A stretch of DNA of 64,000 nt, from positions 4,340,001 to 4,404,000 of the forward strand of contig JAGIQG010000024.1 of assembly GCA_024679065.1 (NCBI GenBank), read 5' to 3'. A program made the position numbers and the translations under genes. Positions 7,171 through 45,598 of this stretch are shown here, piece by piece. This stretch comes from Sphyrna mokarran. Its lineage: Eukaryota. How positions within the stretch are numbered: position 1 is the stretch's first letter; the number at the start of each line of letters is the position of its first letter. The notes beneath the pieces were generated by a model, which was not told the origin of the DNA, did not search any database, and saw nothing but the letters and a program-made list of their open reading frames with translations.

Positions 7171-7379
7171 TATTATTGTTTCAATAGGTTGCTCTTTCAA
7201 ATTGCATCTGCTCCAGAAATCTTCCAGAAGCCAACGGCCAGAATCTTATCAACATTCATGCAGGCGAGATTTTCCCATTCTGCTGCGGTAAACAGAGATT
7301 TGGTTGGCTGCCAAATTCTCCGACTGAGCTGCAGCGGGGGGCATGGCAAGAATGACGGGTAAAATCACACCCAATGTCT

Positions 7380-9573: not shown

Positions 9574-12571
9574 AATGCCCTATTGCTCAAACTAGTTTCA
9601 ATGCCCCATTGCTCAGACTGGGTTCAACGCCCTATTGCTCACACTGGGTTCAATGCCCCATTGCTCAGACTGGGTTCAACGCCCCATTGCTCAGACTGGG
9701 TTCAATGCCCTATTGCTCAGACTGGGTTCAACGCCCTATTGCTCAGACTGGGTTCAACGCCCTATTGCTCACACTGGGTTCAATGCCCCATTGCTCAGAC
9801 TGGGTTCAACGCCCTATTGCTCACACTGGGTTCAACGCCCCATTGCTCAGACTGGGTTCAACGCCCCATTGCTCAGACTGGGTTCAATGCCCCATTGCTC
9901 ACACTGGGTTCAATGCCCTATTGCTCACACTGGGTTCAATATACCATTGCTCAGACTGGGTTCAACGCCCTATTGCTCAGACTGGGTTCAATGCCCCATT
10001 GCTCAGACTGGGTTCAATGCCCCATTGCTCTCACTGGGTTCAATGCCCTATTGCTCACACTGGGTTCAATATACCATTGCTCATACTGGGTTCAATGCCC
10101 CATTGCTCAGACTCGGTTCAACGCCCCATTGCTCAGACTGGGTTCAACGCCCCATTGCTCAGACTGGGTTCAACGCCCCATTGCTCAGACTGGGTTCAAT
10201 GCCCTATTGCTCACACTGGGTTCAATGCCCTATTGCTCAGACTGGGTTCAATGCCCTATTGCTCACACTGGGTTCAATGCCCCATTGCTCAGACTGGGTT
10301 CAATGCCCTATTGCTCAGACTGGGTTCAATGCCCTATTGCTCAGACTGGGTTCAATGCCCCATTGCTCAGACTGGGTTCAATGCCCTATTGCTCACACTG
10401 GGTCAATGCCCCATTGCTCACACTGGGTCAATGCCCTATTGCTCACACTGGGTTCAATGCCCCATTGCTCTCATGGGTTCAATGCCCATTGCTCACAGGG
10501 TTCATGCCTATTGCTCACACTGGGTTCAATGCCCTATTGCTCACACTGGGTTCAATGCCCATGCTCAGACTGGGTCAATGCCCATTGCTCAGACTGGGTT
10601 CAATGCCCCATTGCTCACACTCGGTTCAATGCCCCATTGCTCACATGGTTCATGCCCCATTGCTCAGACGGGTTCAATGCCCCATTGCTCAGACTGGGTC
10701 AATGCCCCATTGCTCACACTGGGTTCAATGCCCCATTGCTCACACTGGTTCAATCCCTGCTCAGCGGCAATGCCCCATGCTCACACTGGTTCAATGCCCC
10801 ATGCTCAGACTGGGTTAACGCCCCATTGCTCAGACTGGGTTCAATGCCCTATTGCTCACATGGGTTCAATGTGACTGGGTTCAATGCCTATTGTCAGACT
10901 GGGTTCAATGCCCTAGCTCACACTGGGTCAATGCCCCATTGCCACACTGGGTTCAATGCCCTATTGCTCACACTGGGTTGTCAATGCCCCATTGCTCAAC
11001 TGGGTTCAATGCCCCATTGCTCACGGTTCAATGCCATGCTCAGACTGGGTTCAATGCCCCTTGCTCCACTGGGTTCAATGCCCCATTGCTCAGAGGTTCA
11101 ATGCCCCATTGCTCACACTGGGTTCAATGCCCCATTGCTCACACTGGGTTCAATGCCCCATTGCTCACACTGGGTTCAATGCCCCATTGCTCACACTGGG
11201 TTCAATGCCCCATTGCTCACACTGGGTTCAATGCCCCATTGCTCACACTGGGTTCAATGCCCCATTGCTCACACTGGGTTCAATGCCCCATTGCTCACAC
11301 TGGGTTCAATGCCCCATTGCTCACACTGGGTTCAATGCCCCATTGCTCACACTGGGTTCAATGCCCCATTGCTCACACTGGGTTCAATGCCCCATTGCTC
11401 ACACTGGGTTCAATGCCCCATTGCTCACACTGGGTTCAATGCCCCATTGCTCAGACTGGGTTCAATGCCCCATTGCTCACACTGGGTTCAATGCCCCATT
11501 GCTCACACTGGGTTCAATGCCCCATTGCTCACACTGGGTTCAATGCCCCATTGCTCACACTGGGTTCAATGCCCCATTGCTCACACTGGGTTCAATGCCC
11601 CATTGCTCACACTGGGTTCAATGCCCCATTGCTCACACTGGGTTCAATGCCCATTGCTCAACGGTTAGCCCCATTGTCACACTGGTCAATGCCCATTCTC
11701 ACATTTCCCCATTGCTCACTGGGTTCAATCCCATTGCTCACGGGTTCATGCCCCATTGCTCAACTGGGTTCAATGCCCATTGCTCACTGGTCAATGCCCC
11801 ATTGCTCACATGGGTTCAATGCCCCATTCTCACACTGGTCAATGCCCCATTATCACACTGGGTTCAATGCCCATTCTCACACTGGCATGCCATTCACATG
11901 GGTTCAATGCCCCATTGTCCACTGGGTTCAATGCCCCATTTCAACTGGGTCAATGCCCCATTGCTCCATGGGTTCAATGCCCATTGCTCACACTGGGTTC
12001 AATGCCCCATTGCTCACACTGGGTTCAATGCCCCATTGCTCACACTGGGTTCAATGCCCCATGCTCACACTGGGTTCAAGCCCCATTCTCATGGGTCAAT
12101 GCCCCATTACTCACACTGGGTTCAATGCCCCATTGCTCACACTGGGTTCAATGCCCCATTGCTCACACTGGGTTCAATGCCCCATTGCTCACTGGGTTCA
12201 ATGCCCATTCTCACTGGGTTCATGCCCATTGCTCACACTGGGTTCAATGCCCCATTGCTCACACTGGGTTCAAGCCCCATTGCTCACACTGGGTCAATGC
12301 CCATTGTCACTGGGTTCAATGCCCCATTGCTCACACTGGGTTCAATGCCCCATTGCTCACACTGGGTTCAATGCCCCATTGCTCACACTGGGTTCAATGC
12401 CCCATTACTCACACTGGGTTCAATGCCCCATTACTCACACTGGGTTCAATGCCCCATTGCTCACACTCGGTTCAATGCCCCATTACTCACACTGGGTTCA
12501 ATGCCCCATTGCTCACACTCGGTTCAATGCCCCATTACTCACACTCGGTTCAATGCCCTATTGCTCAAACT
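9574..12571. repeat. 26-bp tandem repeat (minisatellite), ~115 copies
   Basis: Unit TTCAATGCCCCATTGCTCACACTGGG with period 26 (e.g. 11101 to 11127). Variants are CAC/CAG, AAT/AAC and CCCC/CCCT. Confidence 0.98.
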
Positions 12572-38796: not shown

Positions 38797-39512
38797 GTAT
38801 TGCTTTATATTTTAGTCTTGAATAATGGTGAATGGATGGTTCAAAGCTGAAATTGAATGGAATGTGATTCTCTTCATTTATGAATTGCATTTCCTTTTTG
38901 TTGTTTCACCCTAGCAAGTGGGTACTGGCAATTAAAAATAACAGGAACTTGGCATTCTAAACTGTGCTGAATTTATACCAGCAAGACAAGTGTAAATTGT
39001 ATGCAAGAGAAAAAGTTCCAGGCAGCCGCAATGACTTCAAATTTTGAAACCTACAGCAATGCCAACGTGCTTTCTATCTTCTGTGTATTTTATATTCAAT
39101 CACCTGATTATACAGAATCGGTCATTGGATAGTGACTTGTACAGTAGCTGTAGGCAAAGCCGCCTTCAATTTTGGCCGGCAAGTACAATCAGAATAGTGA
39201 TTTACGCACCATTATCTGAAATGCAGAGTGCAAAATTATGATGCGAGTCTCTAAATGACACTTAATTGGCTATGGAGAAATGATCTGTTGATGCTGTCTC
39301 CAGTGTTAATACATTATTGATTGAAAAGAGTTATGTGGATTAATTTAATTGTGAAGTCAAAGATCTGTAAGAAAGATGTAAAAAAAAAATGGAGAAGTGA
39401 ATTGGAGCCAGACTTGGTTAGTGGGGAAGAAAAACTGAAGGACAAAGAAAAACTAATTAGTACTTCATTCATACTGCATCCTCTACCTACATTTCAAGTT
39501 CTCTTCTATTCT

Positions 39513-40854
39513 TGAGAGACACTCAGGAGAGTGTCTTATCCGAGTTTTATTGTTGCTCGTCGACACGTGTCATGCACTTCTGATCGGAATCAGAGTGACT
39601 TCCACCAGATGTTATCACAGCCCTTAGGCATTGGCGGAAACGGGAAATTGATCTTGGAATGATGCAGCCACAACCACAATTGCAAGCAAGCGGATTGAGT
39701 CACACCTCTGGGAGCGTCTGTCGTGCATGTTAGTTTTTGCTCGTTTGCTCCGAGCTGTTTACCCATAAATCATCATTTGATTACAAAGTGATTTTTATTA
39801 AGTAACAGACACAACCATACAACAAACAACCCAACAATACCGAAAAAGCGACCGTGGCATGAAACGCGCTTGCACAACCCGGGAGCTGCACCCATTGCTG
39901 TCAACCACACCCAACCCGTCGGGGCATGGAAGACATGTCTATTTCTGTTACTTTTCGTCATCATCTGGCCAGCAATCATCAGGAACGAGCCGGGACAGCA
40001 CAGTCCATTCACTGCGTCACACCAGGTACAGGTCTGTTTGTCTTTCCTCAAAGTCGTGTGGGCTGGAGGTCTCGGTGGGGCTTCTGCTACCTTGATAGGC
40101 GTGATCGCATCCGTCACATGCAGATCACCAACTATCCCCGGGACTGGACGGGACCTGTCAAGACAAAATTTCTTTCACGATTACCAGGTTTAAAGGTACA
40201 GAAGCATGTTGGCAGTTCTTGGCCAGTCAGATTCCCTTCAGGACCATCACCTACCAGTTTGAAGGCCTGAAACCCTGCGGGACCTCTGCTAGGTTTGACT
40301 CACTGTGGTCTACAATGCAAAGAGTACCACAGTTATGCGAAACATACCAAAGACTATTCCAACAATACCACTCCTGGCTGGCAGTCCAGTGATAGTGATC
40401 ATTGTCTAGGCATGAGTGTCACCCGCTATTAGTTTCTCGGCCAGTCGTGGAATACCATCTCCTGTGCCCATGGAGATGATACCAGGTGGCTCCCGCTGAA
40501 GGGATTGACTCACTGTGCGCTAGAAACCAGAAGATTCACACAGCTACTTGAGATAGGCAATTTTTAAATGGAGCCTTCTTACGCAAGAATGGATAAAAGC
40601 CAATCTCAATCCACCTGTTTGTAATTGCAGTCTGATTGGGTACAGACGTGCAACTACATCCGCATTTTGCTTCTTGGACAGTTGCTTTAGCCATCGCCGC
40701 TTGGTCGAATAGCGGCGATGTTGCCTGGCAGGACCATTGAGGAGGTGCAACTCACTGTGTTATAGAAGCGATAAAATTCACACAGCTACTGTAACCATGA
40801 CTCTCCCACTCGAGAGTAAGAGAGTCATAGTTACTCCTGCCTGAAATTAAGCCA
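39513..40854 (-). mobile_element. Unclassified CpG-rich, structured non-coding insertion (antisense, inside a WASF2 intron)
   Basis: Abrupt rise in CpG relative to the flanks. Three tandem structured units at the minus-strand 5' end; minus-strand AATAAA at 39794-39799 and 39546-39551; terminal hairpin 39517-39536; TG...CA ends with imperfect flanking repeat TATTCT/TTTTCT. Confidence 0.55.
40680..40842 (-). ncRNA. HDV-like (delta-type) self-cleaving ribozyme fold, unit A
   Basis: Minus strand: P1 (A)GGCAGG/CCUGCC(A); P2 AGUUGC/GCAACU; P3 ACC/GGU with L3 UCCUCAAU; GG for P1.1; P4 CAUCGCCGCU/AGCGGCGAUG; J4/2 G-CUAAA. This closely parallels the HDV antigenomic core ACC-UCCUCGC-GGU-CCGACCU-GG...GAUGG-CUAAG. 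Confidence 0.72.
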
Positions 40855-40864
40855 TTTTCTATGT

Positions 40865-41860
40865 GTAAGCTCTTCAGTCCAGTCATGAATTGAAAATTTA
40901 ACAGGAAGAGGTGAATCCACAACTAGCCCGCTCCTCAATGATGGAGAAGTCAGAACTTCAGTGCGAAGTACAATTAAGGCTGAAGCAATTTAAGACATCT
41001 TCAACCTGAAGTAGAGTGGATGATCCATTTCAACGTACTCTTGAGGTGCCCAACATCATAGATGCCAGTTCTTCAGCTAATTTGGTTCACTCTACATGAT
41101 ATCAGGAAGCAGTTGAAGACGTAGATACTTCAAAGGCTATGGCCCTGACAACATTTTGGCAATGGTACTGAAAAATTATGCTCCAGAACTAGCTGACAAA
41201 GGTTCGTCTATACTCAACGTCAGCTCTATTCTTACCACAAATGCTGTCAGACCTGCTGGGATTTTCCAGCATTTTCTGTTTTTGCACCCTTAGCCATGCT
41301 GTTACAGTACAGCTACAGCACTGGCATCTACCTGGCAATGTGAAAAATTGCTCAGGGATGTCCTGTCACACAAAGATCTAACCCTGCCAATTACTGCCCC
41401 ATAAGCCTATTCCCAATATCAGCAGTGATGGGAGCTGTCATTAACAGTGCTATCACATGGCATTTATTCAGCAAATATCTGCTTACTGACACTCAGTTTG
41501 GGTTCTGCCAGGATCACTTGCTTCCTGATCTCATTATGACCTTGTTCTAAACAGTGACAAAAAAGTGAGGTTAGTGTGATTGCCCTTGATAGCAAATCAA
41601 CATTTAGAATATGGCGTCAAGGAGTCTTAGCAAAACTGGTCACTGGGAATCAGAAATAGGAGGAAAATCTTCATTGATTGGAGTGATAGTTCTCAAAGGA
41701 AGATGTTCGCAGTTGTTGGTCAATCGGTCCCAAGACATTGCTGCGGGAGTTTGTCAGGTTGGTGTCCTAGACTAAACTATCTTTAAGTGCTTCAGCAATG
41801 ATCTTTCCCTCCTTAAGGTCAGAAGTGTGGATGTTCACACATGATTACTTAATATTCTAC
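40865..41860 (+). mobile_element. CR1/L2-clade LINE ORF2 fragment with a nested short Penelope-type repeat (~41190-41285)
   Basis: KAM(G)PDN-like, ANYCPISL and QFGFCQ remnants of an RT domain. Confidence 0.7.
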
Positions 41861-41989: not shown

Positions 41990-43600
41990 CATAGCATCAT
42001 AGGGGTTTACAGGCTCTTCGACTTGTTCATACTGTCCCTTTTTATTAATCACTAAGCTAGTCCCAATTGCCCATGTTTGGCCCATATCCCTCTACAGCCA
42101 CTTTGCTCATGTGACTATCTAAACACTTTTTAAAGGACAAAATTGTACTGCCTCTACTACTACCTCTGGCAGCTTGTTCCAGACAGTCACCACCCTCTGA
42201 AAAAATTGCCTCTTGACCCTTATGTTTCTTCCCTCTCACCTTAAACCTAAACCCTCTAGTTTTAGACTTCCTTATCTTTGGGAAAAGATTGACTATCTAA
42301 TTGATGTTATTTTAAACACCTCTATAAGATCACCTCTAAACTTCTTAAGCTCCAGAGGAAAATGTCCCTGCCTATCCAGCCTCTCCTCCTTGCTCAAACA
42401 ATCAAGTTTCAATATCATCCTAGTAAATCTTCTCTGCATTCTTTCTACTTCAATAACATCCTTTCTATAATAGGGTGACCAGAGCTGAACACAGTATTCT
42501 AAGTGTGGCCTTACAAACATCTTGTACAATTTCAACAAGACATCCCAAATCCTGTTTTCAGTGTTCTGACCAATGAAACAAGCATGCCAAGTGCCTCCTT
42601 CACCACCCTGTCCATTTGTGTCTCTACTTTCAAGGAGCAATGAACCTGTACCCTACACCACTTTGTTCTATAACTCTCCCCAGTGCCCTACCATTAACTG
42701 AGTAAGTCCTACCCTGGTTTGACCTACCAAAATGTATTACCTCGCATTTATCTAAATTAAACTCCACCTGCCATTCATCAGCCCACGAGCCCAATTGATT
42801 AAGATCCTGTTGCAATCCGAGATGACCTTCTTCACTGTCCATTATGCCAGCAATCTTGGTGTCATCTGCAAACTTACTAACCTTGCCTCCTATTCTCGTC
42901 CAAATCACTAATATAAATGTCCAGTAACAGTGGACGCAGCAGTGATCTCCGGGGCATTGAGCACTCTCAAAGTCATGCTGATTGTCCCTATACGTGAACT
43001 ACGGGGATTCAAGAAGGTAGCATACCATCATCGGACCTGAGCATTGTCCCATGAGCAACTATAAAATTTTGAACTTGTGTTAGTATTTCATCCATTAGCT
43101 CATTGTAGTTTATTGATTTAGGGTACCTGATTGTTCATAAATATCATCACTTGTTGAAATCATTTATTATCTAGGGTGCGTAGCAGGGTTACTTTGGCTT
43201 ACATTATCGACTTCCCTTAACCTTAAATGGCAGATTCCACGAAGCCAACATTTCAGATTCCACAGGCCTCTAATTTGAAAAAACACCCCCCTACAACTAC
43301 CTTCTGTCTTATGTCATCAAGCCAATTTTGTATCCTATTGGCTCCTTCACTTGGATCCATTGAGATTTAACTTTATGTAACAACCCACCATGTGGTGCCT
43401 TGTCAAAGATCATGTAAACAACTTTAACCGCATTGCCTGCATCTACCTTCTTGGTTACCCCCCTTCAGAAAACTCGGTGAAATTTGAGAGATATAATTTT
43501 CCACTTTCAAAGTCATGCTGACTGTCCCTAATCAGCCCTTCCCCCTCTCAATGCCTGTAAACATGTCTTTCAGAATATCTTCTAACAACTTACTGTCGAC
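41990..43600 (-). mobile_element. CR1 LINE RT fragment with 3' end, interrupted at 42962-43264
   Basis: ORFs read VRPHLEYCVQLWSPYYRKD and VSKFADDTKI...WQVEFNLDKCEVIHFG. Confidence 0.9.
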
Positions 43601-45598
43601 AACGCGTGAACTATTGGGATTCAAGAAGGTAGCAAACCATCATCTGGCCTGCTCCTTCTGTTCTTGTATTCTTGTTCTCCAGTGCAAGTCGGGATGGGCA
43701 ATTAAATGCTGGTCTCGCCAGCAATGCCCATGTCCCAAAAGCAACTTTTGAACTTGTGTTAGCATTTCACCTGTTGGCTCCTTGTAGTTTATTGATTTAG
43801 AGTACCTGATTGTTCATAAATATGATCACTTGTTGAAATCATTTGGCATTATCTAGGATGCATAGCAGAGTTTCTTTGGTGGCTTACATTATCAACTTTC
43901 CTGAAGCATAGGAACTTTAAATAGCAGATTTCATGAAGCCAACGTTTCAGATTCCACATCAACTAATTAATTATATGAAGGTGAATTTAATTACTGGCTT
44001 CCTTGATATTAAAATAAATACTGGGTGAAATATTTTACAATGACATCCAATAAAAATGTATAATAAATGTGGAATGTTGCTAGTCAGATTTTAAGTATCA
44101 ACAGAATTATTTAGGTCAGTGCTGAATAAAGCATGCTATAGAAAGTTACCAGAGAACCTTGAAATGCCACAGCTCATTGTCGCGGGAGCAATTACTTGGA
44201 AACAGACTAACCTGTGAAATTAATCACGAATACGTTGACATCTCAAACCAAAATGTGAACATTTTAGCAATTACTGAATAATTCAGTTTGTTTATCAAAC
44301 TGGTGTACGAAATTACAATTGTTGCTTTAAAGTTCTGTGTGTCTTGTCCCAAGAACATTACCAAATGAGAATATTAGAAAATGGATACGAACATTACAAA
44401 GGGATACTGAATGATATTGAGAGTGAGTGAATAGGCAAGATTGGCAAGTGGATTTCAATGTAGTCAAATGTGAGGTCATCCACTTTCGACTTCAAAAGGA
44501 TGGAACAAAGTCCTACTTAAATAGTGAAAAGAAAGAAATGATGGCGGGAAGGTGGGTTTAAATACATAACTAAAGATTAATGGAATTCTTTATATCTGGA
44601 GCACTAGAACAGAAGGAGGTAAAAGTTATGTTTCAGTTGTCCAATGCCTTGGTTAAACCATAGGGCATCATACCTTGAGAAGGGTGGGAAGACTTTGGAG
44701 TGAGTGCAACATCAGTTTATTGGAATGATGCTGTGCTTCAAGTGTTAAATTGTGAAGAGAGATTGCATAAAATAGATTGTATTCCCTGAAATTTGGATGG
44801 TTAGAAGGGTATTTGGTCAAAATAGATTAATGTACAGCTGAAAAGAAACTATTTTTGCTGGTTGGGAATAGAGGACGCGGGACACAAATCTGGCTCAATT
44901 TTTCTGATTTTCTCTTGAAAACACTTTACAAAGGTGATAAAAGTTTGGAATTCTTTTATAGATGGCAATTGGTACTATATCAATTGTAAATTTTAGATGT
45001 GAAATTGATTTTTATGGATACGGGCAAATATAGAATTGGATCATAAATCAGCCATGATCTTATTGAATGGCAGAGCAAGCTTGGAGGGTTGAAAGGACAT
45101 CTCCTACTTGAGTCTTCGTTTTCAGAGTTGATGTGGGATAATAGGCACTTTTGATAAAATAATTAAAAGCAAAATACTGCAGATGCTAGAAATCTGAAAC
45201 AAAATAGAAAATGCTGGATAGACTTAAGCCTGGCAGCATCTGTGGAGAGAGAAACCAAAATGTAGCAGCATCAGATGGACTCAACATCTTAACTGTTTTC
45301 TTCTTCACATGTGCTGCCAGATCGAATCAGCTTATTCAGTTTTTGTTTTACCATTATTTTGTGTAATAGTATACTGCTTGTATACCTTGGATGAGTTGCA
45401 GCGCAAAATAAGAATGTCGTGCTGTAAACACTGAGGTCAAGGAGAACCTGTGGAGAGAAAACGAATAGCATTTCGGATCAACAAACTTTCATCAGAACTG
45501 CAATGTGAATGCACTTTAATTTTTCTATTTTGTTTCAAATCACAAAACTCTTACAAAACACACTGAAATATATTGGTTGCTATTCTGTCTTTATCTAG

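Follow-up and report, generated by a model that had tools for sequence, protein, structure and literature searches.

R2 is a model among retrotransposons with site-specific insertion, and RNA-templated gene insertion builds on it. In Drosophila, R2 SIDEs are non-coding, promoterless elements at the R2 site that combine the 5' HDV-like ribozyme of R2 with an unrelated middle and the 3' end of R2 (passages of PMC3414825). They are short (R2Dwi_SIDE is 529 bp long), lie in rDNA and carry one ribozyme, which cuts at the junction. The commonest cut site of R2 ribozymes is position -28. Ribozymes of this -28 class take the 5' strand of P1 from 28S rRNA, have a long J1/2, a conserved L3 and a catalytic C, and can be preceded by 28S duplications at the 5' junction that contain the 28S P1 strand only (passages of PMC3774820). 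Two flatworm families, R2NS-1_SMed and R2NS-1_CSi, form an R2 lineage with young copies outside rDNA (passages of PMC5035012). Retrozymes are also non-autonomous retroelements with self-cleaving ribozymes. Excerpts of the literature describe them as hammerhead-based, as LTR-flanked or tandem monomers, and as forming circular RNA.

R2s of cartilaginous fish have recently been catalogued (PMC13188248). The passages of this catalogue that we drew on do not mention non-autonomous partners, and neither do those of a review (PMC13580325). In our paper searches we found no vertebrate R2 SIDE and no multi-ribozyme R2 head, and Repbase, Dfam, subscription papers or the supplements of PMC13188248 and PMC5035012 may hold such a family. 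Here we describe a candidate from the shark Sphyrna mokarran.

The locus lies in a 64,000-nucleotide stretch of contig JAGIQG010000024.1 (the window, whose positions we use throughout). A preliminary description had noticed three delta-ribozyme-like units (A, B and C) at 40225..40842 on the minus strand. The feature extends beyond this region, on to 39509: the three units are the 5' half of a 1.33-kb dispersed element at 39509..40841 (minus strand). In alignments of its copies the homology spans about 40841 to about 39506 and stops abruptly at either edge. A DNA search of the shark's own genome (2.77 Gb) returned 41 matches with 84-100% identity from the best 40 scored of 539 candidates; in this set the other copies are 84-91% identical to the window copy. 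An exact 16-mer from unit C has 418 matches genome-wide, compared to 3 for a reversed control. Counted by these exact matches, the copy number is at least 418.

The copies fall into subfamilies of very different age. Among 139 heads compared, they range from old (about 91% identity within the subfamily, including that of the window copy) to young. One young subfamily (23 copies) has a mean identity of 98.1%, and its motif has 120 exact matches. The most distant subfamilies are 74% alike in an earlier set of 103 heads. The window copy belongs to subfamily I and is old (88% identical to the nearest relatives compared). It has no long open reading frame; the longest ATG frames are 68 aa in sense and 114 aa in antisense. 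Pfam searches with the 11 long frames of the window found nothing in the element, with weak matches only in frames of a 26-bp minisatellite. A tRNA search of the window found none, and the head is made of 28S and ribozyme sequence rather than being tRNA-like, as in a tRNA-derived SINE. Sampled words of the element occur at a fraction of 0.35 in one doubtful RNA run and of 0.13 in another, which is no evidence of expression.

Downstream of the three units the element has a simple structure, all on the minus strand. A middle region (39960..40214) is common to all subfamilies and has no match to the R2 ORF or 28S. It is followed by a tail (39570..39950) specific to subfamily I, which, apart from the last 46 nt of the element, matches neither 28S nor any of three R2 copies; other subfamilies have a tail with pieces of the R2 3' UTR instead. 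The R2-type 3' terminus (39509..39564) consists of a terminal hairpin and a short A run and is 74-80% identical to the ends of R2 and subfamily II. The 3' junction carries TAG (39506..39508), resembling the start of the 28S sequence that lies downstream of the R2 site.

The element's 5' end comes from 28S rRNA. Its first 25 nt (40817..40841, minus strand) match 28S just upstream of the R2 site, starting at -28, and they match the 28S flank of a full-length R2 in locus L054. In unit A this head forms the 5' strand of P1 and the 5' arm of the first hairpin. The preliminary description missed the 28S origin of this P1 strand, as well as the fact that the region heads what looks like an R2-dependent retroposon with hundreds of copies. 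Of its options, a multi-ribozyme leader was the right kind of reading.

By fold and core, unit A (40680..40841, minus strand) is an HDV-like ribozyme of the R2 type, with a predicted cut 5' of G40841, one base inside the start first proposed. It contains P1 (40841-36/40732-27), P2 (40752-47/40685-80), P3 (40746-44/40735-33), P4 (40720-11/40701-692) and a potential P1.1 in nested double-pseudoknot order, with GCUAAA as J4/2 (40691-86). The core is conserved: among 103 copies the catalytic C40690 is present in 102 and the conserved A40687 in all, and L3 retains U in 102 and G in 85. We think that A very probably cleaved itself in the source copies, and its predicted cut defines the element's 5' end. 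The window copy has a G>A change in L3 (40738). The same L3 G change abolished cleavage in a Nasonia R2 ribozyme (passages of PMC3774820). Because it lost this G, unit A is likely impaired here and the window copy likely dead. Rfam found no family at gathering score in the window; its HDV_ribozyme model, which lacks the long J1/2, gives unit A 25.5 bits (E 1.6), below the cut-off of 50.

The same genome contains an autonomous R2 with an intact 1355-aa frame. Full R2s at L054 and L139 encode zinc fingers and a reverse transcriptase, and their best PDB matches are R2 proteins (E about 1e-160). This R2 is dispersed: 151 matches were obtained from the best 150 scored of 605 candidates, many of them 95-99% identical. 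Full-length copies start at the same 28S head and end before TAGC-like flanks. They carry a single ribozyme with the layout of A (28S P1, first hairpin, CUGUG/CACAG hairpin, P2, P3, P4, GCUAAA), which matches A with z scores of 4.6-6.4. No match to B or C was found in the autonomous R2, which has this one ribozyme only.

Some observations concern this R2 in its own right. The family of L139:858-4925 and L054:3590-8565 is young, lies on many contigs and has some intact 1355-aa frames and two N-terminal zinc-finger matches. With copies that are 97-99% identical and relaxed TAGC-like sites, it is of interest as a vertebrate R2 with loosened specificity. L182 is a simple R2 with an internal deletion that leaves one ribozyme, the 3' tail and about 450 nt of the 5' region; it is a separate, single-module SIDE-like copy. 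Part of the R2 3' UTR (L054:8090-8230), like the tails of subfamilies II and III, matches a common dispersed repeat elsewhere; this segment presumably recalls the conserved core of fish SINEs.

The 3' ends connect the element to R2 as well. The tail of a young copy matches the R2 3' UTR over 72 nt at 90% and over 171 nt at 78% identity, and subfamilies II and III end in pieces of this UTR. For the subfamily of the window copy the match is weak and confined to roughly the last 46 nt (74%, E 0.095). A motif from 28S downstream of the R2 site has 15 genomic matches. In 11 of them the preceding sequence is an R2-type 3' end, and in the other 4 it is upstream 28S. Among the 11 are one true LSU rDNA (L052, 1105 bits), several triple-head elements and one full-length R2 (L054). 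Copies abut 38-357 nt of downstream 28S, while most lie at TAGCC-like sites outside rDNA. Among the 51 young copies with a readable 3' end (60 minus 9), the five flanking bases are T in 47, A in 37, G in 36, C in 35 and C in 33. For 41 copies of subfamily I, picked by a 3' motif, the numbers are 37, 31, 31, 17 and 25; none of the 41 runs into an R2 frame. Insertion hot spots recur in another repeat. We saw no triple-head copy inside an intact rDNA unit among the copies read. L036, L037 and L041 carry the same noisy triple-head copy with a 28S flank; they lie on two contigs and may be assembly duplicates or sequence of low quality.

The element is almost certainly a non-autonomous, SIDE-like partner of R2, because it has a 28S head at -28, its 3' end is of the R2 type, its targets are TAGCC-like, and the genome also contains an R2 whose ribozyme has the same layout. 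Mobilisation by the R2 protein is likely because ends and target sites are shared with R2. Like the Drosophila SIDEs, the element has an R2-type 5' ribozyme, an R2-homologous 3' end and no coding capacity (passages of PMC3414825); the 3' homology is strong in subfamilies II and III and weak in that of the window copy. In contrast to the SIDEs it is 1.3-1.7 kb long, has three modules, starts with 28S from -28 and is present in more than 400 copies over many contigs. Unit A shares the 28S-derived P1 strand, long J1/2, L3 and catalytic C of the -28 class, and young subfamilies likewise have a duplicated head (passages of PMC3774820). However, the shark element has multiplied whole ribozyme bodies, each with its own P1. 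The shark R2 resembles the R2NS families in having young copies outside rDNA, but it keeps the -28 head, a TAGC-like preference, a presence in 28S (L052) and a non-autonomous partner (passages of PMC5035012).

All non-R2 heads that we read are triple. An 18-mer of the head has 240 matches, and the 68 places that we read comprise 60 triple-head elements and 8 R2-type heads, a share of 60/68 that is overstated because probable R2 heads were skipped in the second batch. This batch took 40 of the next 54 listed matches and left out 8 probable R2 heads, 4 duplicates of earlier copies and 2 tandem duplicates. No head of this family with one or two modules occurs among the 68 places. In young subfamilies (L161 and relatives, first 140 nt) the 28S head and the first hairpin are duplicated, and 5 of 60 young copies align from the second of the duplicated heads.

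All helices that the preliminary description had listed for the three units are found where it placed them, in a shared delta-like layout on the minus strand. Apart from the start of A, only details change. C's Watson-Crick P1 begins at 40426, UCCC/GGGA with a 6-nt loop describes B's P3 better than UCC/GGA does, and a hairpin in the A-B linker (40620..40658, minus strand) has to be added. The 646-nt region folds at z = -6.3, and 0 of 20 shuffles did as well, so the region is more structured than shuffled controls. A relaxed delta-topology descriptor matches A and C in the region and misses B; on 1000 dinucleotide shuffles it found no match in 994, one in 6 and two in none. Its one extra match in the whole window, at 7294, was judged to be chance.

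Judged by their scores, B and C are paralogues of A. A-B comparisons reach z 10-15 in three of four cases (0.4 in the fourth), B-C comparisons 7-15 and A-C comparisons 2-10. The stem changes between A, B and C that had been presented as covariation are real pairings. They are differences between paralogues, though, and give no independent support for three active enzymes. One of them is better explained by decay: A's P1 in the window copy (GGCAGG/CCUGCC) looks like two CpG decays of the family form GGCGGG/CCCGCC rather than a compensatory change. Over 30 copies the pair 40838:40730 is GC in 13, AT in 5, AC in 4, GT in 3 and something else in 5.

Unit B (40443..40617, minus strand) has P1 (40617-11/40489-83), the hairpins, P2 (40510-06/40447-43), P3 (40504-01/40494-91) with its 6-nt L3, and P4 (40481-72/40462-53). 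Its helix topology is paired in 94% of cells, compared to 37-46% when slid, and RNAalifold recovers P1, the second hairpin, P3 and P4. The window copy has a private change in B's P2 (C at 40447, where 27 of 30 copies have U). Unit C (40225..40426, minus strand) has P1 (40426-22/40281-77), P2 (40300-295/40230-25), P3 (40294-92/40284-82) and a long branched J1/2 hairpin. Its predicted delta topology is 87% paired (core helices 86-97%) and matches the descriptor, whereas RNAalifold prefers a non-delta fold. C's J1/2 hairpin and P4 change between subfamilies while still paired. In several subfamilies P4 has been rebuilt with a different sequence, pairing retained (a check limited to B and C, with 19 of 22 copies for each).

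In a canonical J4/2 the catalytic C lies three bases before the conserved A, by HDV numbering. B does not have this arrangement: its J4/2 is UUCCA (as in the window copy) or UUCCG in all 10 subfamilies of at least three copies (tables on 103 heads, leaving out singletons and pairs). The last base is A in 65 of 103 copies, G in 37 and U in 1. C has GGGAAU as J4/2, with G at the catalytic place (40235) in 99 of 103 copies, A in 4 and C in none. Both units have a predicted delta fold and lack the canonical catalytic strand, in agreement with the first impression that they look catalytically dead or re-purposed. We are fairly sure that B and C do not cleave, if not quite as sure as of cleavage by A.

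The starting points of the copies tell the same story. Because random truncations insert readily, numerous copies starting at B or C would be expected if these units cut efficiently. Starts in the 100 copies picked by the C motif lie at A's head in 84, elsewhere in A or in the linker in 9, at B's P1 in 1 (L313), within B in 4 and within C in 2. The 41 subfamily I copies, which overlap with this set, start in the 28S head (29), further inside A (5) or deeper (7), and never at the P1 of B or C. A further 60 young copies contribute 46 starts in the head and 14 truncated ones; no start falls at B's P1, and one (L377) lies within 6 nt of C's. These numbers do not support the suggested cassette with release at B and C. 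A barrier could not be confirmed either. Within 40 nt upstream of B lay 7 of 16 truncations in the first sample, but a test set in advance on the new sample failed (2 of 14, p 0.33). A broader excess upstream of B recurs in both samples (10 of 14, p 0.009; 10 of 16, p 0.03). It was noticed post hoc, however, and drop-off of the reverse transcriptase in A would fit it too.

To look for selection we built a tree of 138 copies with 16 supported internal branches, after dropping the noisy copy L047. Changes on internal branches belong to source lineages; changes on terminal branches mostly occurred after insertion. The ratio of internal to terminal changes is 18:346 for the A core, 8:208 for the B core and 19:239 for the C core, compared to 554:3521 in a reference class of hairpin regions, linkers and middle. 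The odds ratios are 0.33 for A, 0.24 for B (p 3.6e-6) and 0.51 for C (p 0.003). Without CpG sites the B core is still depleted (2:144, OR 0.08, p 1.5e-7), and the C core is no longer significant (17:147, OR 0.68, p 0.16). A compact subfamily of 10 copies (L274, L286, L291, L295, L298, L303, L304, L309, L315 and L033), whose 28S head is reduced to about 8 nt, no longer has the first hairpin in A or in B, while the 5' strand of P1 is still present in each.

Covariation was examined in 26 chosen copies, with shuffles that ignore relatedness. In C, 10 of 48 pairs have changed on both sides, a number reached by 1 of 500 shuffles; most of these pairs belong to the J1/2 hairpin, which was drawn with a register slip in three of its pairs. 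The corresponding result for B is weak (6 of 39 pairs, 29 of 500 shuffles). The core helices of B and C are nearly invariant and can give no covariation because they hardly vary. Pair-keeping and pair-breaking changes in B and C do not differ between and within subfamilies (9:12 vs 133:223, p 0.65), some of the breaks being alignment slips in C's P4. Nevertheless, the proposal of past selection on the RNA fold holds up: B's core is constrained in source lineages, P1 strands are kept in the compact subfamily and pairs in C covary. Statistically, B and, less clearly, C stayed under purifying selection, and we consider it probable that B itself was selected.

Our proposed life cycle follows the SIDE model of PMC3414825 (in the passages available), from read-through via cleavage by A and binding of the R2 protein to target-primed reverse transcription, and its biochemistry is inferred. 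A copy would be transcribed by read-through from rDNA or a host transcript; we saw no promoter or tRNA head. Unit A would then cut 5' of the first G and free the RNA, to judge from its fold, its conserved C and A and the 5' ends of the copies. The R2 protein would bind the 3' end and prime reverse transcription at a TAGCC-like site. The insertions themselves are seen at relaxed, non-rDNA sites, like those of this genome's R2.

The element's head is itself a target because it carries the upstream half of the R2 site. Three copies lie within the head of another copy, and in one case a second head comes immediately after a copy (L330, L363, L201 and L236, 3' junctions). Such nested insertions into the 28S-like head offer a possible route to triplication. 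Loss of the inner body after nesting would put a new ribozyme ahead of the older one, and only heads with non-cutting inner modules would be inherited whole. Such an origin would account for the dead state of B and C, but it leaves the conservation of B unexplained.

What, then, keeps B and C in the element? We tentatively favour protection of the uncapped RNA, at somewhat less than even odds. A 5' HDV-like fold has been proposed to protect R2 template RNA, and yet, as a 5' module, a mutant with A for the catalytic C was severely inhibitory (passages of PMC11331408), which argues against a simple model in which a dead fold protects. Instead of blocking nucleases, B and C could bind the R2 protein or a host factor, helping the RNA compete for the protein in trans or stimulating second-strand steps. 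The conservation of B and C suits such binding equally well, and in Bombyx second-strand nicking is promoted by a 5' RNA region to which the R2 protein binds (passages of PMC11331408). However, the R2 protein does not need B or C, because the autonomous R2 has one ribozyme and no match to either; we regard binding as unlikely. Slightly less likely still is that B and C are functionless relics in the same R2 partner, which only had to be non-cleaving and were conserved by hitchhiking in a few source copies. Any multi-module head needs dead inner modules for whole inheritance, and hitchhiking would be in line with the null result on kept and broken pairs, the C core without CpG sites and the failed barrier test. 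Relics do not, however, account for a B core as constrained as that of A, for B's P1 strand being kept where its hairpin was deleted (also in L230), for stems of C re-paired with new sequence, or for three modules in all 60 non-R2 heads among the 68 places read.

B or C might also be slow or conditional ribozymes with a non-canonical J4/2 that release structured RNAs of about 200 nt. B keeps P1, P2, P3, the U and G of L3, the GG after P1 and two C in J4/2, one of which (C40450) is present in 102 of 103 copies; L313 and L377 start at or near the expected places, and R2 ribozymes tolerate much variation (passages of PMC3774820). Slow cleavage is nonetheless improbable: the conserved A is missing from B in 38 of 103 copies, those of the youngest subfamilies among them, the catalytic position of C is occupied by G, and products cut at B or C are rare even though random truncations insert readily (16 of 100 and 14 of 60). 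The last possibility, a delta-type analogue of retrozymes spreading via circular RNA monomers, had been among the original suggestions and draws on the multiple ribozyme-like motifs in a non-coding mobile element. It is very improbable. The element has no terminal repeats, no arrays of a 200-nt unit, no hammerheads by Rfam and none of the features that set retrozymes apart; its head is fixed 28S sequence, its 3' end is that of an R2, its targets are TAGCC, and its copies show the kind of 5' truncation that is typical of target-primed reverse transcription. The nature of the two ends was also the reason to drop DIRS-, LTR- and retrozyme-type readings. Overall, the delta-like folds, the non-canonical catalytic strand of B and C, the selection on the fold and the leader option survive from the preliminary description, and the cassette and the retrozyme do not. 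With a probability of about 0.7, we therefore read the region as the head of an R2-dependent retroposon in which A likely cuts at 28S -28, and B and C are likely non-cleaving folds kept by selection, most likely protecting uncapped RNA.

A CUGAUGA...GAAA stretch near 39981 looks hammerhead-like by eye; it is not kept in other subfamilies, has no Rfam match and was rejected. Elsewhere in the window, a 26-bp minisatellite (about 118 copies) occupies 9574-12571 and causes the long open frames and weak Pfam matches there. Decayed LINE-like sequence at 42000-43960, which we take to be CR1-type, contains a local duplication with a spacing of about 680 bp. Decayed copies of an abundant short repeat lie at 41184-41284 and 45190-45520, without an Rfam match at gathering score; we assume a resemblance to hammerhead-bearing elements of cartilaginous fish.

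The efficiency of R2-based RNA-templated gene insertion is limited by the 5' ribozyme module (passages of PMC11331408). With this element the shark genome contains a naturally occurring R2 passenger RNA in high copy number, whose 5' module is three-fold. Its subfamilies, 74% to 98% identical, show which parts matter, alongside a young, intact R2 with relaxed targeting. B and C may be natural pseudo-ribozymes, a view to which we give slightly less than an even chance: they would have given up catalysis, been kept for a new job (RNA shielding or recruitment of the R2 protein) and been stacked by self-insertion into a 28S-like head, in a recently active vertebrate R2 system that escaped from rDNA. 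If B and C are functional without cleaving, they would be a natural case of a ribozyme fold that is re-used minus its catalysis.
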